Source of the DNA: Candidatus Hodarchaeota archaeon
GTDB taxonomy: Archaea > Asgardarchaeota > Lokiarchaeia > Sigyniarchaeales > SOKP01
Direction of reading: 5' to 3'
Assembly: GCA_048886685.1 (NCBI GenBank)
Contig: JBHLKM010000015.1
Coordinates: 49,073 to 113,072, forward strand
Length of the DNA stretch: 64,000 bases
Shown: positions 40,108-64,000 of the stretch, piece by piece
Layout of the letters: every line of letters starts with the position of its first letter
How positions within the stretch are numbered: position 1 is the first letter of the stretch
Made by a program: the position numbers and the translations under genes
Notes under the pieces: generated by a model
Told to the model about the DNA's origin: nothing
What the model saw: the letters and a program-made list of their open reading frames with translations, nothing else
The model's database searches: none

Positions 40108-40135
40108 TTTTCAAAGGAATTTTCATTGAAATCAG
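40108..40135 (+). repeat. Repeat A copy 1 (left part only)
   Basis: ttttcaaaggaattttcattgaaatcag. Confidence 0.85.
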
Positions 40136-47775: not shown

Positions 47776-47911
47776 AAAATCTTTGCTCACGAACATACTC
47801 CTTTTTTACCATTCCAAATACTTCCGCAATCCCTCAAGCCCTAAGCCTGAACCTTGTGCTCCCCTTTCGACTTCCACACACTCGTGCTATTGAGAGTAGC
47901 AGGCTAAATAG
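47776..47911. repeat. Repeat B1: copy of the 23S rRNA 3' tip plus trailer
   Basis: 47831-47911 matches 63881-63961 at 80/81 nt; also gctcacgaacatactcctt. Confidence 0.95.
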
Positions 47912-52022: not shown

Positions 52023-52196
52023 TGTCTTTCTATATAGATGATTCTTTCCTTATTAAATTATAAATTAGCTATATAAATATTATTAAAAATAACGATATTA
52101 AAGTGTGAGGAATAAATAATTAAGACTTTAAATCATAAAGTTAATATTTTTTAGAAAACTTTTTCGATTCCGAATCTTTCTTGATTTTACTTTGTG

Positions 52197-52280
52197 TTTT
52201 CAAAGGAATTTTCATTGAAATCAGACGCTGAATTTACCTTTCCATCCAATTTTCACAGAAAATTGGGACAAAATTAAAAA
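52197..52280 (+). repeat. Repeat A copy 5 with extended right flank
   Basis: ttttcaaaggaattttcattgaaatcagacgctgaatttacctttccatccaattttcacagaaaattgggacaaaattaaaaa. Confidence 0.97.
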
Positions 52281-53455
52281 TCTAATAAGGTTGCAATAGT
52301 AGCTTTTGAAAGTTTTTCCAGACTTCTGAAATCCATGAATTGAGACGTATCAGCAGGTGTATGGTAGAGCTCTGTTCGAAAATTTGCCCCGTCGACGATA
52401 CTTATTGCTGGAATATTATGTCTCCAAAAGGGTGCATGATCCGTCCGTAAAAGATCTGGAAATTGTTGATTAATTTGTTCATACCCCATAGGTGCCTTAA
52501 TTCCTATGTATGGCACATCAATTTCTTTCAATTCACATTTTTCCAAGAATTTATCCAATAGACTATTTGAATTTTGATCACAAAGAATGTACATAAAATT
52601 CCCAATTTCTTTTTCCCAATCAACTCGATATGATGTCCAGAAATCTGGGGGAATAGACGGTAACCGATGAGTTTTGTGTTCCTCTCTTATCCAACCAACA
52701 GCATCATAGTTAATAACACCTTTGATTGATTGAGATTCTGAGCTTAAAGAATCTACAAAATGGTTGCTTCCCACCAAAAATCTTTCTTCAGCACCTTTTA
52801 ACGGGTTCAAATCCGAATAAAAATTTTGCAAAGCTTTCAAAAATTCTAAGTTTGACTTTGAAAGTTGTTCTTTATTCTGCTCGATCACTGTTTGAACCGC
52901 TTCACCAACATTTTTTCTTGCTCTAAAATATTTGATTATTAATTTGTCACATTCCCTCATTATCTGATGCATTTGTGCAGTGGAATACCTCCATTGGGAA
53001 TCGAAAATCCCATATTTCAATCCTAGATCTCGTCGTTTTTTCATCAATCCAGGATCACCTTCTTCCAAAGTAAACGAGGCTATAATAATTGAAGGAGGAT
53101 TTTCCAATTGTGCCATAATCCGAGCAACTTCCAAGGATATTGCTACTGCAGAAAAATTATCATTAGCCCCAGGACAGTTTGGAACTGTATCATAATGTGA
53201 ACCAATTAATATCGCAGGAGAATTTTGATCCCCGATATAACCAAGTATATTTTTAAAAGTATCATCTAAGTCCGATACCTTAAATTCTTGAAATTCAACT
53301 TTCAGCCCATAACTTTCAAGTTCGTCATAAATATATTCTGCTGCTTCATTTAACTCCAACATATTGTCTAATGGATAACAAGGCCCTTCTAAATTGAGCA
53401 CATGTCGGTAAATTTGCTCTATATCTACTTGCTGAATTATTCTTTCATCATTCAT
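52274..53455 (-). CDS. M28-family metallopeptidase
   Basis: IGSHYDTV…PGANDN, FTLEE, RTDHAPFW, YHTPADT. Confidence 0.92.
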   Translation of the reverse strand: MNDERIIQQVDIEQIYRHVLNLEGPCYPLDNMLELNEAAEYIYDELESYGLKVEFQEFKVSDLDDTFKNILGYIGDQNSPAILIGSHYDTVPNCPGANDNFSAVAISLEVARIMAQLENPPSIIIASFTLEEGDPGLMKKRRDLGLKYGIFDSQWRYSTAQMHQIMRECDKLIIKYFRARKNVGEAVQTVIEQNKEQLSKSNLEFLKALQNFYSDLNPLKGAEERFLVGSNHFVDSLSSESQSIKGVINYDAVGWIREEHKTHRLPSIPPDFWTSYRVDWEKEIGNFMYILCDQNSNSLLDKFLEKCELKEIDVPYIGIKAPMGYEQINQQFPDLLRTDHAPFWRHNIPAISIVDGANFRTELYHTPADTSQFMDFRSLEKLSKATIATLLDF

Positions 53456-53580
53456 AATTTATCCCATATTTGATTCATTTGGGTTTAAGTGTTAAATAAC
53501 ACTATGGATTAAAGGTAAGGAAGAAAAGGTTTCTTAAAAGCCTTTTGAACTATAATTATAATTTAAGATTTTTTTATCTT

Positions 53581-53626
53581 TTTTCACCAAATTTTCATTG
53601 AACTCAGACGCTGAATTTACCTTTCC
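53581..53626 (+). repeat. Repeat A copy 6
   Basis: ttttcaccaaattttcattgaactcagacgctgaatttacctttcc. Confidence 0.95.
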
Positions 53627-54087
53627 TAACTTTTCTATATGCACTCGAAGAGTTAGCCTATGATATTTATAAAAATTTTGGAGGATTAATAGATACTTAT
53701 AATGGTAATATCAAACCGTTTAAAGGAATAGAAGACATAATTAACCAACATCTAAATATCTCGCCAAAAGTGAAACTTAATCAAACGGAAAAAGATATAA
53801 TAGAAAAAACAAAGTCACAACTAACTCAAACAGAGCGCGAGGTGATGAATCGACTAAAAGAAAAGTTAAAAGATTTACTTAAAAAGTTTAATGATGATGA
53901 TTTTTTTCCTTATCCATATATCTTTAAGCCTCCAAGTCCCCCTGGAGATGACGTGTTACAGGGGCAACTAAAACCAGAATTTATACCACCCAAAAAAAAG
54001 CAAGAATTTGAGCCTTATTGCAAGCATTGTGGTGCTGAACTACCTGCTGTACAATTAATTTGTCCTGCTTGCGGAAAGAAGATTTAA
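53626..54087 (+). pseudogene. 5'-truncated gene with C-terminal zinc ribbon (ORF track 53770..54087)
   Basis: Frame stays open with protein-like sequence (ALEELAYDIYKNFGGLIDTYNGNIKPFKGIEDII) back into repeat A6, with no ATG; ends YCKHCG…CPACGKKI. Confidence 0.65.
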
Positions 54088-54526
54088 GGAAACAATAAAA
54101 TCTTAGTGAATTTAGTTGTCTTCTAATTTAGAAGAAGAAGAAGAAGATTCTCGATCTCACTAGACACTTTATCCAGAAACAGCAGGTAAGCAGTGCCATC
54201 GCGATTTCATTACTTAGGAAAAAAATGGGCAATGAGTAAAGATTTTGTATTTCTAAGACACCTTAATACTTGATTGTTACAACAGATGTAGTGTCAAGTA
54301 GAAAGAATAGATTATATCCCCTCTTTCTTTCCATATTTCAGTTTACTTATTTCGGAATCCTCTTTTTTTTTACTTTTTTTCCACATATGGCACAAACCCG
54401 TCTTATAAGGTAAAGTCTTAAAAGAAAAGTGTGATCTTTTCTCATATCGACCATTTTATTACAATTTTTACACCAATAACGTCTCATTTAACCTCTCTCA
54501 CTACCTCATTAATATTTCATTCATAA

Positions 54527-54742
54527 TTAAATCCTAAGGTCATTAATTGTATATGTTTGTTGCTCTTCCCCTTTATCAATTGCAACGGCTAGGCATACTT
54601 TCGCCAAAATATTATCTGCTAAATAATGGGCTAACTCATATACGGTCGGTATTGGACTCTCAGACAATGCCAGCGCATAACTCAACATTGTTTTAATCGT
54701 TTCATGGATTTCATCTAAACTTGATCTAGGCATTTTTATCAA
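54527..54742 (-). CDS. Short hypothetical protein, possibly a 3'-truncated remnant
   Basis: 71 aa ORF between A6 and A7. Confidence 0.4.
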   Translation of the reverse strand: MIKMPRSSLDEIHETIKTMLSYALALSESPIPTVYELAHYLADNILAKVCLAVAIDKGEEQQTYTINDLRI

Positions 54743-54785
54743 TTCTTCTGTTATAATTATCTATTAAACATTTTTGTAATATAAT

Positions 54786-54840
54786 TTTTCACTAAATTTT
54801 CATTGAAATCAGACGCTGAATTTACCTTTCCATTCCAATT
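54786..54840 (+). repeat. Repeat A copy 7
   Basis: ttttcactaaattttcattgaaatcagacgctgaatttacctttccattccaatt. Confidence 0.95.
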
Positions 54841-54890
54841 GGCTTCTTGAAGTTTCTAATTTCCTCTTGCTGAATTTTAGAAGTTTTTTT

Positions 54891-55016
54891 AATGGTGATT
54901 GTACCTATGGTCAAGGAAATGGAGAACAAGCCATTTCAGGATATAATATATCACTTGTACTTAATTTTCTATTCATTATAGCAATTATAATCAGTAGAAA
55001 AATAAAGAAATCCTAA
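54891..55016 (+). pseudogene. Orphan C-terminal sorting/anchor fragment
   Basis: Manual translation NGDCTYGQGNGEQAISGYNISLVLNFLFIIAIIISRKIKKS-stop. Confidence 0.7.
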
Positions 55017-55060
55017 AATTAAATTAACGTGCTCTTTTATTTTTATTGAATTTGTTTATT

Positions 55061-55110
55061 TTTTTCAAAGGAATTTTCTTTGAAATCAGACTCTGAATTT
55101 ACCTTTCCAT
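55061..55110 (+). repeat. Repeat A copy 8
   Basis: tttttcaaaggaattttctttgaaatcagactctgaatttacctttccat. Confidence 0.95.
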
Positions 55111-55290
55111 AACATTTGAATAGATTGATAGTATTGTTCAAATTTTTAGTGGTAAATTAACCATTTTATTTGTAAATTTAGAATTTCACTAGCAAAAATG
55201 TTAAATTAGTTTTAAAAACAACTTTAACCTAATTATCATTTAACAAAAATTTTCCATGTATAATATGAATAAAAAATGAGATGACTATTT

Positions 55291-58014
55291 ATGAAAAAAT
55301 CAAGGTTTAGTTTAGTTCTTATAGTGATTATTCTAATTAGCTTTTCATTTTCTAGTTATGTTAAGCGAATAGAACCTAAAAGTCAAACTGTTGGAAACAT
55401 AGATAATGTAAAAATGTCAGGAACAGCTCCTTTCATATTTGGATTAGATTCAGAGATGGACGACTTAGATCCTCATAATTCATTGGATATAGCGGTAATT
55501 GAGCAAGTATGCGAAAAACTATTTGCATATAATCTAACTGATCCTAACTTACCAATTATCCCTCAATTAGCTTCTGATTTTGGAACATGGGATGGACCTA
55601 ATCCAGATGGAACATGGAATTATAATGTTCCTCTTAGAAGTGGTGTCTATTTTCATGATGGAACTGTTTTTAATGCAACTGCTGTAAAATGGAGTTTTGA
55701 TAGACTCTATTATTTTGTTGATAACGATCTCACTAAAATTGGAGGATTATATGAATTTTACGATGAGACGGTGGGTGGTTTGGTTTCTATCATTAATAGA
55801 GTTGAAATTGTTAATGAATTTGAAGTAAAATTTGTTTTAAATAAGTATTATGCTCCTTTTGAAGATTTACTTACATTCCCTGGTTCAAGCATATTATCTC
55901 CTGCATCCACGCCAGCTACTAGTTTTATTAATACTTATTTCGGTGATTTAGTAGGCACTGGGCCATTTGATTATGATGCCTATCATAAAAGTATAGAAGA
56001 AATCTATTTTCATGCTTTTGAGAATTATTGGGGTGATAAAGCCGATATTGATAGTATGATCTTCAAAGTTATCAGTGATGATACTTCAAGGAATAATGCT
56101 TTATTAAGTGGTACTGTTCATTTCATAGCTACTCCATTAGTTTCCTTTTATTCGTCTATTCAAACAGATCCAGATACAGTTCTCTTAGATTCCGGGTTGG
56201 TAGGGCCTACTGTAACTTACTTGGGGATGAATAATAATCTAATTAATTCAACATTCAGAAAAGCAATATCATATACGATTGATTATTCCTCTATAATTGA
56301 GTTTTATGTAGATGTTAGAGATAATGGGGCAGTAAGGGCAAAATCTCCAATTGCTGAAGGAATGAAATACTCAAATTCAACTTTTGATGCTGCTTATTTT
56401 AATATTACTAAAGCGAGAATAATTATGCAAAGTATGGGGTATGGTACTGGGTTGGATCCAACATGGCCGGGTTTAAATGAAACTGAATGGACCTCGTCTA
56501 TTTTTGATTCATTTAATTTTACCTACCATACCGGAAGTACAATTAGAGAAAGATTATCAGATTTACTCATTGCTAATCTTTCTAAAATAGGTATAGAGAT
56601 TACTCCCGCTGAAATATCATATCCTGAATTTATGTATAGCTTATTTGAGCTTGGAGGCTTCAATAGAGACATGCTACAACTCTACTGGTTAGGATGGGGA
56701 GCAGATTTTAATGATCCCAGCAATATTATAGATCATTCATTTACGAATAGAACTATTGATGGAAATGGTGTTCAATATAATGGTTATGAAGCTGCAATAG
56801 AGGCAGGAAGAAATCCATATGATTTAAATGATAATGTTCAGTTATTGATGGAAGCGGCATTACAAGAGATTAATTCAACAGTAAGAGAGGGTTTGTATGA
56901 CAGGATTCAGGAATTGCTTGTAGAAGAAGATATGCCATGGGCATTTTTAATTAGCCCTAATGTTACTTATGCTCATAATGTCAATTTAACAAATTTTCCA
57001 GAAAATAGGATGGGTAGAATATACTTTTATCCTTGTCAATGGAATGCTCCAGCCAGTACTCTCTCTGCACCTTCAAGCTTAACAGCAGATACAATTTCAT
57101 GGAATCAGATTAACCTTCAATGGATAGATACCGAATCAAATGAAGATGGCTTCCGAATTCAACGTAAATTAGGAGTAACTGGAGATTATATGGAGATTGC
57201 TACAGTAGGACCTAATATTAATACATATATTGATACTGATTTATTACCTGGTGGTATCTATTATTACAGAGTTCAAGCATATAACTTTACTCTCGGAAGT
57301 TCAGCTTGGTCAAACGAAGGAATAAATACAACTCTATCTGCCTTAGCTCCAATTTTAAATGTAATAACTCCCAATCCTGATATAGACGGAGATATTTTCT
57401 TAAATTGGAGTGATGTCGATGGTGCCTCTTATTATTATGTATATCGAGATACAGGACTAATTACGGACCTCTCAGGATTAGTTCCTATATCTAGTCCTGC
57501 AATTTCACAATATAATGATAACGGCTTACTCGAAGGAACCTATTATTATGTGATTACTGGGTATAATGCCGGTGAAGAAACACCAATCTCGAATTGTGAA
57601 TCTGCAACAGTTGACCTTCCTGAACCAGATGCCCCGGTTTTAAGTTCTATCACACCAAACCCTGATACAGATGGAATTGTAAATTTAGAATGGAATGATA
57701 TAGTTGGTGCTACTAGTTATAATGTATATCGAGACACATCGCTAATTACGGACATCTCAGGATTATCTCCTATATCTAGTCCCACAATTTCACAATATAA
57801 TGATACTGAATTAGCCGTAGGAACCTATTATTATGTGATTACCGCAGTGGGTATAGGGGGAGAATCCTTGATTTCAAACTGTGAATCAGTAGAGATAACT
57901 CAACCACCGGTTACTCCCAGGATACCTGGATTTGATTTATATTTATTTTTACCTATTGTATCAATAATCTTAATAGGAAAGATTATTCGATCCAAGAAAA
58001 AAACAATCAAATAA
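55291..58014 (+). CDS. Family 5 ABC substrate-binding protein fused to FN3-like domains, with IPGF-TM anchor
   Basis: LRSGVYFHDGTVFNA, VGTGPF, YLGMN, GWGADFNDP; FN3 YYYRVQAYN; RIPGFDLY…KKKTIK. Confidence 0.9.
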   Translation: MKKSRFSLVLIVIILISFSFSSYVKRIEPKSQTVGNIDNVKMSGTAPFIFGLDSEMDDLDPHNSLDIAVIEQVCEKLFAYNLTDPNLPIIPQLASDFGTWDGPNPDGTWNYNVPLRSGVYFHDGTVFNATAVKWSFDRLYYFVDNDLTKIGGLYEFYDETVGGLVSIINRVEIVNEFEVKFVLNKYYAPFEDLLTFPGSSILSPASTPATSFINTYFGDLVGTGPFDYDAYHKSIEEIYFHAFENYWGDKADIDSMIFKVISDDTSRNNALLSGTVHFIATPLVSFYSSIQTDPDTVLLDSGLVGPTVTYLGMNNNLINSTFRKAISYTIDYSSIIEFYVDVRDNGAVRAKSPIAEGMKYSNSTFDAAYFNITKARIIMQSMGYGTGLDPTWPGLNETEWTSSIFDSFNFTYHTGSTIRERLSDLLIANLSKIGIEITPAEISYPEFMYSLFELGGFNRDMLQLYWLGWGADFNDPSNIIDHSFTNRTIDGNGVQYNGYEAAIEAGRNPYDLNDNVQLLMEAALQEINSTVREGLYDRIQELLVEEDMPWAFLISPNVTYAHNVNLTNFPENRMGRIYFYPCQWNAPASTLSAPSSLTADTISWNQINLQWIDTESNEDGFRIQRKLGVTGDYMEIATVGPNINTYIDTDLLPGGIYYYRVQAYNFTLGSSAWSNEGINTTLSALAPILNVITPNPDIDGDIFLNWSDVDGASYYYVYRDTGLITDLSGLVPISSPAISQYNDNGLLEGTYYYVITGYNAGEETPISNCESATVDLPEPDAPVLSSITPNPDTDGIVNLEWNDIVGATSYNVYRDTSLITDISGLSPISSPTISQYNDTELAVGTYYYVITAVGIGGESLISNCESVEITQPPVTPRIPGFDLYLFLPIVSIILIGKIIRSKKKTIK

Positions 58015-58182
58015 TTCTTTTTTTTTTCATTTTTGTGAAGTAAGTTGCCTTGTTTATAAAAACTTCTACTCTGATTTTGTTTAGATAGCATAGAGAAAGT
58101 AAGGTTTTATTAAGAAATAAGAAATTAGAAAATACATTAATAAAATGAAAAATAAAGCAAAAATACATCTCAAGAAAACTAG

Positions 58183-58219
58183 TTGAAATCAGACGCTGAA
58201 TTTACCTTTCCATTTCAAT
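58183..58219 (+). repeat. Repeat A copy 9 (left part missing)
   Basis: ttgaaatcagacgctgaatttacctttccatttcaat. Confidence 0.9.
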
Positions 58220-58494
58220 GCTAATTTGAAGACCTTGAATCAAAACTTAATTTTATAAAACTGAAATTAGAAATTTCTAATTTTGTTAAATAGATCTAAA
58301 TTTGTTTTAGAAATCTTAATGAGTTAAAACAGAATAAATTCAGTAAAGGTTTAAAGTTCATTCTAAGTTCAGCAATTAAATCTATTTTATTAATAGTTAG
58401 TACAATATTCATAAGTATTGAAATAATGAAAAGGAATTTTATGGTTGAGAAAAATTGTTTGAATCAAGTCCAATTACTTTAAATCAACTAAATT

Positions 58495-60441
58495 ATGGCT
58501 CAAATAGAATCTCTAGAATTAAATAAGATAGAACGTCTCGTAAATGAGGGTAGATTTGATGATGCCCTTCAATTGATTAATAAATTTGAAGAGGGAGGAG
58601 ATATTTCTCTTTATGATAAAGTATCATGTAATCTTTTTAAGGGAGAGCTATTATATCAGCAAGGATTATTTGAAGATTCATTTCAACTTGCCAAACACGC
58701 TTATAAAGAGAGTTTGGGATTAGGAAAAAGCCTTTTAACCATTGATTGCTTATATGGTATGGCAATAAACTTAATCAGCCAAAGTAAAACTAAAGAAGCG
58801 GATCTATTAATAAAACAGGGAGAAGAACTTCTTGAAGTTATACCTCAAATAAGCCCAAAGGATTACAAGAAAAGAGAAGCAGCATTAATCTATCTTAAAG
58901 GATTGGTTTTTCATCCATGGACATCTCAAGAAAGTAATATAAATCTCGCAGTAAAATATTTCCAAGAAAGTTTAGCGATATATGAAAGTTATGATAATAA
59001 AGATGGAATAGTTGGATACCTTGTATTAATTAGTTCTATATTTAATCTGATAGGTGAATTAGAAAAAAGTTTTGAGAATATAGAGCGAGCTTTACATCTA
59101 GCTACGGAATTAAACAGAAAACACTCTATAGGATGGATTTTGTTTATTAAAGGCACATTTTATCATCTAAAGGGGAAGATCGATGAAGGTGTTAAACTTT
59201 ATCAGCAGAGTTTATACATTTTTAAAGAACTCAATAATTACAATATGGTTGCCAGTCTGCTTAACAATCTAGGTGGAATTTTTAAATTGAAAGGAGATCT
59301 AGATCACGCTTTGGAATGTTTAGAAGAGGCTGTAGAATTAGGTACCAAATTTAGTAGTTTGAAAACCATAGCAAATTTTTATGATTATTTAATTCAAATT
59401 TTAATTGAGAAAGGAGAGATCAGCAGGGCAGAAGAATGTTTAGAGAAATTAGATCAAATAAGTAAACAATTGAATCTAAAAGAAACATATTGCATATTCT
59501 TTTTTAACAAGGCTTTGATTTTAAAAACTAGTACTCGTGTTATTAATCGAGGGAAAGCAGAAGAGCTATTAAAACGAGTCCTCGAATTGGATCCAATTTA
59601 CGAATTTAAAATAGGAGCTCTAATTAATTTAAGTGATTTACTTCTAATAGAATTAAAGACGACACATAATTTAGAAGTTTTGCAAGAAATAGAAAGATAT
59701 ATTAACCAACTAATAACAATTGCAGAAAATTCGGGTTCATATGAGGTGTTGGGAGAATCTTACCTTCTACAAGCCAAATTAGCCTTAATATCATTAGAAT
59801 TGGAGGATGCTAGAAGATTATTGACTCAAGGACAACAAATTGCTGAAAAATTCGGACTACAACAATTAGCAATGAAGATTTCAAACGAACATGATGATCT
59901 ACTGAAAGAATTAAGTAACTGGGAAAAATTAAGAGAATCAAAAGCATCTTTGCCTGAACGAATGGAATTAGCTCGTTTGAATGAACAAATAGAAGGAATA
60001 ATTAAAAAACGTGTCATTGAAGTTCCAAAACTGCCTGAAGAGACACCAATGTTACTTTTAATTTTATCAGAAGGAGGAGAATCCCTTTTCTCTCAATATT
60101 TTATAGACGACCAATCGATAGACGATCATCTTTTTGCAGGTTTCTTAAGTGCTATTAATTCATTTATTAATGAAATCTTTTCTGAGGGTCTTGATAGGGT
60201 GATTTCTGGGGAGCACACTATTCTCTTAAACGCAATGGCACCATATTTTATTTGTTATATCTTCAAGGGTCAATCATATTCTGCTCATTTAAAGATTAAG
60301 GCGTTTATCGATGGTATACAAAGTGATAAAGAAATTTGGGATAGGTTTGAAAGGTTTTTCAAGATAAACCAGGAAATTCAATTAAAAGATGTTCCCTCTC
60401 TCAAAACTTTAATACAAGAGATATTCATTGAAACGACATGA
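58495..60441 (+). CDS. TPR-repeat protein with C-terminal longin/roadblock-like domain
   Basis: TPR helices (LNNLGGIFKLKGDLDHALE); C-terminal LLILSEGGESLFS…FAGFLSAINSF. Confidence 0.85.
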   Translation: MAQIESLELNKIERLVNEGRFDDALQLINKFEEGGDISLYDKVSCNLFKGELLYQQGLFEDSFQLAKHAYKESLGLGKSLLTIDCLYGMAINLISQSKTKEADLLIKQGEELLEVIPQISPKDYKKREAALIYLKGLVFHPWTSQESNINLAVKYFQESLAIYESYDNKDGIVGYLVLISSIFNLIGELEKSFENIERALHLATELNRKHSIGWILFIKGTFYHLKGKIDEGVKLYQQSLYIFKELNNYNMVASLLNNLGGIFKLKGDLDHALECLEEAVELGTKFSSLKTIANFYDYLIQILIEKGEISRAEECLEKLDQISKQLNLKETYCIFFFNKALILKTSTRVINRGKAEELLKRVLELDPIYEFKIGALINLSDLLLIELKTTHNLEVLQEIERYINQLITIAENSGSYEVLGESYLLQAKLALISLELEDARRLLTQGQQIAEKFGLQQLAMKISNEHDDLLKELSNWEKLRESKASLPERMELARLNEQIEGIIKKRVIEVPKLPEETPMLLLILSEGGESLFSQYFIDDQSIDDHLFAGFLSAINSFINEIFSEGLDRVISGEHTILLNAMAPYFICYIFKGQSYSAHLKIKAFIDGIQSDKEIWDRFERFFKINQEIQLKDVPSLKTLIQEIFIETT

Positions 60442-60450
60442 TTTTCTCTC

Positions 60451-60538
60451 TTTTTTCAAAGGTATTTTCATTGAAATCAGACCCTGAATTTACCTTTCCA
60501 TTCCATTTTCACAGAAAATTAAGACAAAATTTAAAAAA
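60451..60538 (+). repeat. Repeat A copy 10 with extended right flank
   Basis: ttttttcaaaggtattttcattgaaatcagaccctgaatttacctttccattccattttcacagaaaattaagacaaaatttaaaaaa. Confidence 0.97.
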
Positions 60539-62573
60539 TCTCATTGATCACCGTTTTGAGCGCGGGGGGCTTATCGAGCTCTAACATCTCACTAGTTTTG
60601 ACCGATTTTTCTAAAGCTTGCCAAATTTCCGAATTTTCCCTTATGGCTTCGGTAAAGCGTGATAACTTTTGCAACGCAGGATATGATTGCCCTTTAATAA
60701 CATAACATGTTAAAAACGGTTCTATCGGGTTTATTAAGATAGTATTTTCACCGATTCTAATTCGATCGATAGATTTAGAAAAGATTTCGTTACTGAATGT
60801 ATTAAAAGCAGACATAAATGAGCTAAAAAGGTTTCTATAATCCCAATTTTCTACGAAAGGATGACTAAAGTACGTAGACCCACCCTCACCCATAACAAGG
60901 AGTAATATTGGCTCCTCTTCCACTAACTCAGGAGGATCTACTGCCTGTTTTCCTTTTAATCGGTTAATGACCCCGTCAAAGGAAGCTAATTCGATTCTAT
61001 CTGCCATCGGAGCGTTTTCATACTTAAGTTTATCCCACTCCTCAGTTTTCTCAAGTAGAATATCGTATTCATTGGAAATCTTTTGTGCTAACAAGTTAAG
61101 ACCGTGGTCCTCTGCGATCTGTTGAGCTTGCATATATAAAGATTTTCCTCCTTCAAGATCCAATTGAATTAATGCCAACTTAGCTTGAAGTAATTTTGCC
61201 TCACCCAACCATGAAAACGAATGTTGGTTATCTGCGATTTTAAGAAGTTGAATAATCAATGGGGATATCTCATCTATTACTTCTGAATTATTGTAGATAG
61301 ATAGTTCTTCTAAGAGAAGATCACACAATGTAACTATCGCTAAAATATGAAATTGAGCGAAAACAATATCATGCTCAACTATTTGTTTTAATAGTCTTTC
61401 AGCATCAGTATGATCACGCATTCGGCTACTCATTTTTAATATTGATGCTTTTCCTAATAGATATCCCTGCTCAAATAATATGCTTTCATGCTGAACTGAG
61501 AGATTTTCTAATTGTTTTAAATTCTCTTGTGCTTGTTCACGGGAGTTGTTATCAAGGTTGATTAATAATAAGGCTAACAACGGAAATACCATGGATAAAC
61601 GACTTCCAATCTTTTCACCAAGTACCAAAGCCTGCTCAAAATACTCTATAGCTTGATCATTTTCACCTCCCTCCCTGCAAATTTCCCCAATAATCCGTTT
61701 ATTAAAGCTTAAATCAAAGTAATTTAAACTTTCTTCTGCTAATTTGGTTGACTGTTTAATATATTTTAAAGCTTTATTCAACTCACCTTTACTATGGTAA
61801 ATCTGCCCAATAATCCTCGTTGAGGCTGCCTTAATAAAATCGCTTATTTTCTCTATAGATAGGGACTTCTTACAAAATTCTAATGCTCTATTAAGATCTC
61901 CCTTAGCAAAATATGTTAATCCTATTGTGGAAAGAATATGTGCGATGCCGGTTTGAAAATCTAATTTTTCAAAGAGTTTTAAACTCTTCATGGCGTATTC
62001 TAAGGCTGTATCCAGTTCTCCTTTTTGAAACCATATGATGGCAATTAAGTCTAAGGTATATCCAACTTGAACGTCATATTTTATTTTTTCTCCTAGAGTT
62101 AAAGCTTCCAATGCTAAATCTAATGCAATATTATAATTAATCTTGAAAAGATAAATCCTAGATTTCAAATACGTTAGAAGGAATTTTAACTTAGCATTAT
62201 TAGCGGGAGATCCATTTGAAAGAGTATTAAATAATTCTTCGGCTTTTGAAATTAAATCAAGTGCTTCATCATGTTTTCCTAAGTATGCAATAACAGCCTT
62301 AAGGAAGAGTGCTTCAATAGATTCCGGAACCAATCCTAATTCTTGACTCATCGAATAAGCAAGTTCGCCGACTTCTACTGCTTCTTTCAATTGAGCTGTT
62401 AAACGATATATATTTCCTTTTAAAAGTAGTGCCGATAATTGATCTTTAGAAGTAAGTTCAATCTTTTTCTCAAAATTTATAACCATTTCGAGCGCTTCTC
62501 TTACTTTCCCGTTATACATGAGTTCTTTTGCGCAGATTAAATCCTCGGGTCTTGGATCGGACATCACTTTCAC
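60531..62573 (-). CDS. TPR-repeat protein with C-terminal longin/roadblock-like domain (paralog of 58495)
   Basis: Same architecture; shared LLQAKLALI, KISNE, CYVIKGQSY motifs. Confidence 0.85.
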   Translation of the reverse strand: MKVMSDPRPEDLICAKELMYNGKVREALEMVINFEKKIELTSKDQLSALLLKGNIYRLTAQLKEAVEVGELAYSMSQELGLVPESIEALFLKAVIAYLGKHDEALDLISKAEELFNTLSNGSPANNAKLKFLLTYLKSRIYLFKINYNIALDLALEALTLGEKIKYDVQVGYTLDLIAIIWFQKGELDTALEYAMKSLKLFEKLDFQTGIAHILSTIGLTYFAKGDLNRALEFCKKSLSIEKISDFIKAASTRIIGQIYHSKGELNKALKYIKQSTKLAEESLNYFDLSFNKRIIGEICREGGENDQAIEYFEQALVLGEKIGSRLSMVFPLLALLLINLDNNSREQAQENLKQLENLSVQHESILFEQGYLLGKASILKMSSRMRDHTDAERLLKQIVEHDIVFAQFHILAIVTLCDLLLEELSIYNNSEVIDEISPLIIQLLKIADNQHSFSWLGEAKLLQAKLALIQLDLEGGKSLYMQAQQIAEDHGLNLLAQKISNEYDILLEKTEEWDKLKYENAPMADRIELASFDGVINRLKGKQAVDPPELVEEEPILLLVMGEGGSTYFSHPFVENWDYRNLFSSFMSAFNTFSNEIFSKSIDRIRIGENTILINPIEPFLTCYVIKGQSYPALQKLSRFTEAIRENSEIWQALEKSVKTSEMLELDKPPALKTVINEIF

Positions 62574-62660
62574 TAAGTAAAAATTGGATCTAAAATAAGG
62601 GAAGAAGGATTTCCTTAAAAGCCTTATGTACGAGAATTTCGATTTCTGATTTTCTTTAGT

Positions 62661-62708
62661 TTTTTCAATGGAATTTTCATTGAAATCAGACGCTGAATTT
62701 ACCTTTCA
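62661..62708 (+). repeat. Repeat A copy 11
   Basis: tttttcaatggaattttcattgaaatcagacgctgaatttacctttca. Confidence 0.95.
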
Positions 62709-62729
62709 TGAATATAAAATTAAAAAATA

Positions 62730-62850
62730 AAATCTAAGCTCAAGAACATACTCCTTCTAATCCATCTCAATCTCATCCGTTTCCTACCAGCCAAAATACG
62801 ACCACAAACCCTCAAACCCTAAGCCTGAACCCTGTAATCCTCTCTCGATT
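62730..62850. repeat. Repeat B2: diverged copy of the 23S trailer
   Basis: aagctcaagaacatactccttc…ccctcaaaccctaagcctgaaccctgt is colinear with about 63808-63923. Confidence 0.88.
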
Positions 62851-63806: not shown

Positions 63807-63919
63807 AAAATCAAAGCTCAAGAACATACTCCTTCCTACTCATCCCAAACTTATTCTTACCAGTCAAAACACGCTTCATACCCTCAAGCTCTAAGCCTGA
63901 ACCTTGTGCTCCCCTTTCG
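63807..63919 (-). other. 23S rRNA 3' trailer, probably including the 3' strand of the pre-23S processing stem
   Basis: Purine/GC-rich segment right after the 23S end on the minus strand (GGGGAGCACAAGGTTCAGGCTTAG); pairing partner would lie outside the window. Confidence 0.55.
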
Positions 63920-64000
63920 ACTTCCACACACTCGTGCTATTGAGAGTAGCAGGCTAAATAGGTCGCCCGAAAGCTCCCTACGTACACCCCTACCTCACCA
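63920..64000 (-). rRNA. rrl: 23S rRNA, 3'-terminal ~80 nt (gene continues beyond the window; mature end approximate)
   Basis: Reverse complement TGGTGAGGTAGGGGTGTACGTAGGGAGCTTTCGGGCGACCTATTTAGCCTGCTACTCTCAATAGCACGAG fits the archaeal 23S terminal helices (GGGGTGTA…TT[CT]AGCCTGC…CAAT..C.CGAG), with pairings GUAG/CUAC and UAGG/CCUA and a UUCG loop. Confidence 0.85.

Follow-up and report, generated by a model that had tools for sequence, protein, structure and literature searches.

A 64-kb stretch of contig C15 (hereafter the window; GC ~30%) from the 4.4-Mb genome of Candidatus Hodarchaeota archaeon (G000) contains an array of gene cassettes separated by co-oriented copies of a ~55-nt core repeat, and two unrelated genes of this array, an M28 peptidase and a tetratricopeptide repeat (TPR) family gene, are framed by the same two blocks of sequence. 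Each shared block adjoins a core copy without a gap in both cassettes, and we refer to the blocks as the left and right arms. We think it probable that these are co-oriented cassettes in which the core is an attachment (att) site, the arms are inherited, the M28 open reading frame (ORF) came in as a replacement by illegitimate recombination, and the left arm acts as a promoter. The att site is most likely that of a tyrosine recombinase which relatives encode together with a ribbon-helix-helix (RHH) partner. Asgard archaea are the nearest known prokaryotic relatives of eukaryotes; their uptake of foreign genes is an open question, on which this cassette system bears.

The core repeat and the shared blocks

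Ten copies of the core (consensus TTTTCAAAGGAATTTTCATTGAAATCAGACGCTGAATTTACCTTTCC) are present in the window, all on the plus strand between 40.6 and 62.7 kb, where chance predicts none. They separate units of 0.28-8.3 kb whose genes are unrelated and lie in both orientations, among them MarR-GNAT, a 1616-aa LamG protein, a NosD-like protein, a methyltransferase plus HAD, the M28 peptidase, a zinc-ribbon protein, an SBP_bac_5 protein and two TPR genes. When conservation is scored by column on anchored copies, only about -20 to +40 is common to all of them. The genome as a whole has ~45 core copies, mostly in co-oriented clusters of which the majority sit at contig ends (C12, C15, C19, C20, C25 and C34; also C5 and scattered single copies), with one opposite-strand copy in the cluster at 23-30 kb of C19. 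Seven clusters run up to the end of a contig. An exact 21-nt core pattern recurs at more than 100 places in metagenome-assembled genomes of other Promethearchaeota (Loki-type Asgard), and core plus right arm was matched in 49 of the 52 genomes of the genus that were searched for core and arms.

An earlier note on this DNA had proposed that the M28 and TPR genes share an upstream block of ~45 bp and a downstream flank in which their stop codons take equivalent positions. Both pairs of blocks lie where that note placed them and contain the strings it quoted, and their similarity is significant when local alignment scores are compared with those of 2000 dinucleotide shuffles. The downstream flanks (52244-52280 versus 60500-60538) score 56, against 17.0 +/- 2.9 for the shuffles (maximum 33; 0/2000 reach the score), and the upstream regions (-170..-26 of cores 53595 and 62676) score 45, against 17.4 +/- 2.5 (maximum 30; 0/2000). 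The 46-nt upstream block alone scores 37, which one of the 2000 shuffles equals; the similarity is in fact longer than had been proposed, reaching over ~110 nt from TGGAT as far as the core. The ten core copies of the window form 45 pairs; on the left side 53595/62676 alone is conspicuous (45, no other pair above 29), and on the right side 52211/60468 alone (62, no other pair above 33). The parts of the two cassettes, and the other core copies of the window, are as follows.

52192..52253, plus strand: core copy at the left (3') end of the M28 cassette; family D2, exact 34-mer
52244..52280, plus strand: right arm of the M28 cassette, with palindrome CCAATTTTC-ACA-GAAAATTGG and then GACAAAATTAAAAA; putative truncated regulatory region of the rhh operon
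52274-52276, minus strand: M28 stop codon, inside the right arm (52244..52280)
52274..53455, minus strand: M28 peptidase ORF, the cargo, 393 aa (PF04389, E 5.6e-28)
53456..53475, minus strand: short native M28 leader aaatatgggataaatt, common to the L198 and L199 orthologues
53488..53574, plus strand: left arm of the M28 cassette, including the 53505-53550 block
53533-53544, plus strand: TATA-like CTTAAAAGCCTT of the M28 left arm; the coding strand reads AAGGCTTTTAAG
53575..53636, plus strand: core copy at the right (5') end of the M28 cassette
60448..60509, plus strand: core copy at the left end of the TPR cassette
60500..60538, plus strand: right arm (downstream flank) of the TPR cassette; TPR stop codon at 60531-60533
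60531..62564, minus strand: TPR-family ORF, 677 aa from ATG (MSDPRPEDL); the ORF listing extends to a GTG at 62573
62586..62656, plus strand: left arm of the TPR cassette, with CTTAAAAGCCTT at 62614-62625, 50 nt to ATG
62657..62718, plus strand: core copy at the right end of the TPR cassette
40617, 42118, 50387, 54780, 55057 and 58160, plus strand: starts of the remaining six core copies, 62 nt each
40108-40135, plus strand: left-half-only core copy

Origin of the two arms

The right arm is the predicted regulatory region of a recombinase operon, since in relatives it runs unbroken into a Shine-Dalgarno (SD) sequence, a start codon and the two genes of the operon, rhh and int. In 38 copies the core is followed by CCAATTTC-loop-GAAATTGG and then GACAAAATTTAAAAA, the stem of the palindrome being conserved and its loop variable; the longest copies add GGCTCGAACCTTGTGTCTCTTAAAACGGAGGAAAATACAA and then ATG AGC GAA AAA TCG, the start of rhh. 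The region would comprise the palindrome, which is a plausible operator, a box ACAAAA-TTTAAAAA resembling a TFB-recognition element (BRE) and TATA box, and the SD. The rhh product has 172 aa and an N-terminal NikA-like RHH domain (PF21983, 26.2 bits, slightly below the 27-bit cut-off), and the rhh stop is overlapped by int, which encodes a 302-aa tyrosine recombinase (PF00589, E 7e-23). The order core, right arm, rhh, int, with both ORFs, is found in three relatives (G109, G123 and G141), and in two others (G133, at a contig end, and G045) the core and right arm are followed by rhh, either whole or cut. Right arms are 85-94% identical in dozens of genomes.

In the cassettes the right arm appears to be a truncated relic of this region, retaining the palindrome and a BRE/TATA-like ACAAAATTTAAAAA box; such a relic may end transcripts or fire antisense. 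It is recognisable in 72 of the 248 distinct junction copies used for end points (~71% have none), and the end points are nested: 26 of the 72 (36%) lie at the A-run, 13 at 6-20 nt beyond it, and the rest at the SD or at various rhh codons. Relics of rhh persist in units devoid of an integrase gene, cut after ~57-58 residues on C20 and after ~26-27 on C25 of G000, and at other loci after aa 37, 30, 34 and 21. The M28 and TPR right arms end at 42 and 43 nt, in the modal class; because the A-run is the commonest end point, their shared end is not evidence for a common truncated ancestor, and descent of the two arms from one such ancestor is not claimed. A locus on C20 (459-2724; L103) contains a core, the full right arm and a cut rhh that abuts the 3' end of a convergent 610-aa TPR paralogue, and looks like an intermediate of the truncation series seen in the TPR cassette of the window.

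Two loci of G109 (L150:12380-12460 and L151:2290-2330) have, on the other side of the core, a leftward gene of 441/442 aa and of no known family whose start codon is at the core centre. In the integrase-bearing elements CAGACGCTGA becomes CGGACATGAA, and the left half of the core encodes the first ~12 residues of this protein. L150 (G109:C129:1-20000) holds two rhh-integrase elements in tandem, ~12.4 kb apart. Their genes include several for leucine-rich-repeat proteins and one for a P-loop-like protein, and none was recognised as a hallmark of viruses or plasmids.

The left arm was found in 15 of the 213 junction copies scanned for arms, its heart, TTTCCTTAAAAGCCTT-TGTACTATAATTTCGATTT, lying ~45-110 nt left of the core. 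Exact matching of left arm plus core gave 13 occurrences, in seven of the 52 genus genomes, and the reversed pattern, as a control, gave none. Next on the left of most left arms is the start of a TPR-family gene, with 46-51 nt from box to ATG and N-termini reading MSDPRPEDL, MSDPRTEEL, MSNSVPKEL, MCDPRPQEL or MPRIMPEEL; left arm and TPR start stand together in G000, G127 and G071, and a decayed TPR start in G133. We read the left arm as the region 5' of a cassette gene of the TPR family, comprising its putative promoter and leader. The same arm precedes at least six unrelated ORF families: besides M28 in the window it stands before a 172-aa ATC_hydrolase (PF14196; C12 of G000), a 339-aa AAT/Ntn hydrolase (PF03417; C34 of G000), a 112-aa zinc-ribbon protein (G127) and a 525-aa beta-lactamase-family protein (PF00144; G124), and farther behind it are a methyltransferase-like ORF (no Pfam search was run on it), which is probably left-arm cargo, and a small membrane protein. 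At least five of these families, beyond the ATC hydrolase, are distributed over the G000 species and three others.

Both arms together occur in G000 around M28, around the ATC hydrolase (C12:165906-166644) and around three TPR paralogues (C15, C19:89580-87585 and C5:243866-241695). The frame thus extends to a third type of ORF, the lack of which the earlier note would have counted against its proposal. One relative, G071, has the series core, right arm, 12-codon rhh stump, TPR gene, left arm, core, and another carries the entire TPR cassette of the window at 74% identity (G127:C2:14991-17210). The left arm of the TPR cassette is 95% identical to that on C19, and the left arm of the M28 cassette is 97% identical over 30 nt to a stretch of C2.

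Nine of nine ORFs behind the left arm point away from the core, the TATA-like box keeping one orientation and lying 46-78 nt from the ATG, and in some further cases the distance is 160-217 nt. A BRE/TATA function is plausible, and the left arm probably drives the cargo, M28 included. Of the suggestion that the two blocks form a standard expression frame, the part concerning the left arm holds, as a promoter-like segment that is reused; the 3' block is better described as a truncated regulatory relic of the rhh-integrase operon than as a dedicated 3' signal of the cargo. A purpose-built vector in two parts is not supported, since the blocks are minority extensions of a junction that mostly has no arms at all.

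The M28 reading frame as a mosaic piece

Orthologues of the M28 peptidase are present in the protein database at 82-88% identity. None was found in 50 genomes of the same genus, and homologues from other genera of the order are at most 39% identical, have no cores nearby and yielded no boundaries. The ORF is whole at three loci (L198, L199 and L200; ~90% DNA identity), and a fourth (L215) has a partial copy with the same 3' end. Similarity spans the ORF almost exactly, from ~17 nt before the ATG (aaatatgggataaatt) to TAATTTT after the stop, and outside it all five contexts differ; L200 has lost the aaatatgggataaatt leader stretch to a ~38-nt deletion. L198 and L200 have a common upstream region, probably the native M28 promoter, in place of which the window has the TPR-type left arm. 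That this upstream region is still shared shows that spacers at such divergence stay alignable. L200 is a cassette too, with a core ~130 nt upstream of the ATG and neither arm.

At the 3' end the two stop codons do lie at equivalent positions, both TAA at 35 and 36 nt from the end of a 23-nt core match, but the M28 stop is the gene's own: it reads GAT TTT TAA TTTT in L198, L199 and L215 (GATTTTTAATTTT) and GAT TTC TAA TTTT in L200 (GATTTCTAATTTT). It overlaps the arm's TTTTTAAATTTT by microhomology, so that the arm in the window reads AAAATTAAAAA, one T shorter than the canonical box. TPR paralogues vary after ...EIF (IF*, IFI*, IFVQ*, IFN*), which places the joint of the TPR cassette likewise in the T-run. 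The alternative raised in the earlier note, replacement of an ORF within one cassette lineage, accordingly describes the pair best, given a left arm native to TPR genes and an M28 mosaic of ORF size.

Beyond the Asgard orthologues, the named proteins that match the window M28 at 42-47% identity include some of Bacteroidota and Izemoplasma, and Asgard M28 proteins of other genera are 32-39% identical to it; these pairwise identities hint at a possible cross-domain origin of the cargo lineage. In the neighbouring unit (53630-54790), internal pieces recur at 94-99% identity in G142, G070, G109 and C19 of G000 without the rest of the unit, and since they are found apart from it, mosaicism extends to the inside of cassettes. 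A search with that unit left the right boundary of the M28 cassette undefined, returning mosaic internal pieces only.

As to exchange of whole units, a close relative (G124) with the same methyltransferase-HAD unit is 96-98% identical to G000 up to the centre of core 52211 and then ~87% identical over the right half of the core and the right arm, which is more change than the divergence of the flank predicts. After the A-run its sequence is unrelated, and a plus-strand ORF of 143 aa takes the place of M28. Two core copies have no left half (58179 and C25:3965), and one, at 40108-40135, has the left half only. Together with the switch in identity, these half sites fit, as indirect evidence, an exchange at the core centre, in which the right arm would move with the unit on its right; the switch is read over few positions. 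The left-half-only copy ends at GAAATCAG and passes into unrelated sequence, with the first full copy following after ~500 nt; this point could mark the boundary of the array or be a hybrid site.

We propose that the integrase shuffles whole units at the core, so that each cassette would extend from the right side of one core to the left side of the one after it. The TPR cassette would be the native owner of the frame, into which the M28 ORF was inserted between TPR-type arms by illegitimate recombination of the microhomology type, bringing along its stop codon and ~17-20 nt of its native leader and losing the upstream region that orthologues on two contigs have kept. New cargo would enter existing units in general at A/T-rich microhomologies near ORF ends, and the left arm would then supply its promoter. 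Cassettes on this account inherit recognisable arms from their founders, the promoter of the rhh-integrase operon on one side and that of a TPR gene on the other, and their cargo can be exchanged almost exactly at ORF boundaries.

Several observations weigh against this account or limit it. The 32-nt stretch at 53476-53505 matches neither the TPR-type sequence nor the native M28 upstream sequence. In a blastn-short search of the genome with the M28 left arm, the TPR left arm was not returned at E < 0.05, and the pairwise similarity of these two arms is significant only by the positional shuffle test and the family alignment. No founder element with the order core, rhh, int, TPR, left arm, core was found, and the assembled G000 genome has rhh remnants but no copy of the rhh-partner integrase, so that any activity there needs the enzyme in trans or is historical. 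A crude genome-wide positional profile of TATA-like hexamers gave no sharp position by which to calibrate the promoter call, and the sample of loci is biased, many having been retrieved with an rhh query. The modal stop at the A-run could also mean that the core plus 43 nt is a selected functional unit and not a neutral relic.

Alternative explanations and related systems

That last point leads to a different, and in our judgement unlikely, explanation in which the arms are functional arm-type sites of a composite att site like that of phage lambda (P-O-P'), kept for excision and re-insertion, with expression secondary. There are arms on both sides of the core, as there would be at P-O-P' junctions of tandem elements; the first ~43 nt of the right arm, palindrome plus A-run, are the length most often retained; the palindrome keeps its stem while its loop varies; and on direct reading the left arm, the core and the right arm all show AAGG/CCTT motifs. 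Set against this, most junction copies have no right arm and 198 of the 213 scanned no left arm, and the nested truncation points reach into rhh coding sequence. An element encoding its integrase should have both arms by analogy with lambda attP, but at junctions next to rhh, whether integrase-bearing or relic, only the right arm is found, the sequence left of the core being variable or, with the left half of the core itself, the start of the 441-aa gene. The resemblance to lambda attP lies in a core between extended conserved arms and in tandem units that carry P' at one end and P at the other, whereas here the arms are dispensable at most junctions and are promoter regions of adjacent genes.

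Another possibility is a dedicated cassette-making process that adds a standard frame to transcripts or ORFs, for instance by RNA-mediated capture. The ORF-sized M28 unit, recurring in five contexts from about -17 to TAATTTT, and the many ORF families behind one left arm would suit such a process. We nevertheless regard it as improbable: neither the length of the arms nor their distance from the ATG is constant (46-217 nt), the transcription start predicted for L198 from the shared upstream TATA-like box would not fall at -17, and selection on ORFs combined with fast indel turnover of AT-rich spacers yields the same picture. It also has no direct support, a search of the entire window with Rfam having found no RNA family at the gathering threshold; reverse transcriptases and group II introns near the arrays were not searched for.

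Since the two cassettes are 7 kb apart in one array of low GC, a recent duplication within the array, a gene conversion between the two, or a chance resemblance of AT-rich spacers comes to mind, but we give this very little credence: the shuffles never reach the scores, the M28 and TPR arms are just ~76-88% alike, and each has closer relatives on other contigs or in other species.

We attach even less weight to the idea that the array is a canonical integron, or a cluster of attC sites lacking an integron integrase (CALIN), with the blocks as parts of attC. Integrons have been reported in ~8% of Asgard genomes, and archaeal integrons and CALINs described (Ghaly et al. 2022, PMC9668308), and the co-oriented sites around small accessory units (10 of 10 copies on the plus strand), mostly of a single gene, are integron-like. 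Yet no IntI was detected in G000, beside the array or elsewhere (with TIGR02249 the best score is 48 bits, where the cut-off is 265); that genome has a single PF00589 gene (C2:183383-184300), distant from the arrays. GTT and AAC are both missing from the core, whichever strand is read, and with them the R boxes (RYYYAAC ... GTTRRRY); when the core sequence was read for the anatomy of attC (R''/L''-L'/R', crossover in R'), this was not recognised. Identity to G124 switches in the middle of the core and not at one end, cargo lies in both orientations, and the tyrosine recombinase linked to the core is of another kind, paired with an RHH protein and with its transcription directed away from the core.

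The core-repeat system is therefore distinct from the integron in having its own site and its own recombinase family, and the likeness to sedentary integrons and CALINs is one of organisation. As in the attC of the Vibrio VCR type, where one conserved kind of site flanks unrelated ORFs, there are long co-oriented arrays of small, mostly single-gene units with one site type and mostly without a recombinase gene. The differences, in addition to those above, are a dyad-type core and promoter-like arms borne by the cassettes. Cis-mobilizable elements (CIMEs), the integrase-less derivatives of ICESt1/ICESt3 in Streptococcus thermophilus for which accretion-mobilisation is the model, are similar in that directly repeated att sites flank modules, decayed modules retain integrase-proximal relics (here the truncated rhh and its promoter), and autonomous relatives have a cognate tyrosine recombinase beside the site, as was found here beside the core. 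They differ from the present case of single genes, dozens of junctions per genome, an Asgard host, and a promoter arm of one gene family that unrelated ORFs reuse. The dif/pdif modules of Acinetobacter plasmids (XerC/XerD) are likewise small accessory modules with short recombinase sites in varied contexts, but pdif sites alternate in orientation and use the host Xer, whereas the cores are co-oriented and linked to a dedicated rhh-int operon, and G000 has one Xer-like gene, whose identity to the rhh-linked integrase is just 22%.

A literature search on mobile elements of Asgard archaea returned nothing on the core repeat; in the papers searched, the sole cassette platform described for these archaea is the canonical integron (PMC9668308), and a provirus reported for Lokiarchaeum in a preprint (10.64898/2026.02.13.705702) uses a different integration locus. 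What is new here is where the two arms come from and that M28 is mosaic at the level of the ORF. The genesis of cassettes, unsolved for integrons, becomes comparable in a second, independent system, for which concrete DNA substrates (the core with and without arms) and candidate proteins are provided for experiments. More tentatively, and with less chance of being right than of being wrong, one may envisage a gene-collecting platform of Loki-type archaea, unrelated to integrons, with a dyad att core, an operon of RHH protein and recombinase, outward promoter arms on both sides of the junction and cargo expressed in either orientation, in which ORF-sized units, possibly derived from transcripts, are loaded repeatedly into few frames.

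Among other identities considered for the repeat, that of a known RNA was dropped in view of the Rfam result. A C/D-box small RNA, repetitive extragenic palindromes with their associated transposase (REP/RAYT) and a miniature inverted-repeat transposable element (MITE) were dismissed from the sequence, given the co-oriented clusters, the absence of terminal inverted repeats and target duplications, and the linkage to the integrase operon.

Elsewhere in the array, the spacing of two core copies (54780-55118) is just 277 nt, and the unit that they bound, in which no ORF reaches 60 aa, is empty or decayed. The window, and with it the contig, ends within the 3' end of a 23S rRNA gene (63920-64000, minus strand; RF02540, model positions 2908-2987 of 2987, E 2.4e-9). 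Part of this tip lies within an 81-nt piece (63881-63961) that recurs with 99% identity at 47831-47911, right after a minus-strand gene, and weaker copies are present at 62723-62848; the array thus abuts an rRNA gene and has copies of the rRNA tail within it.

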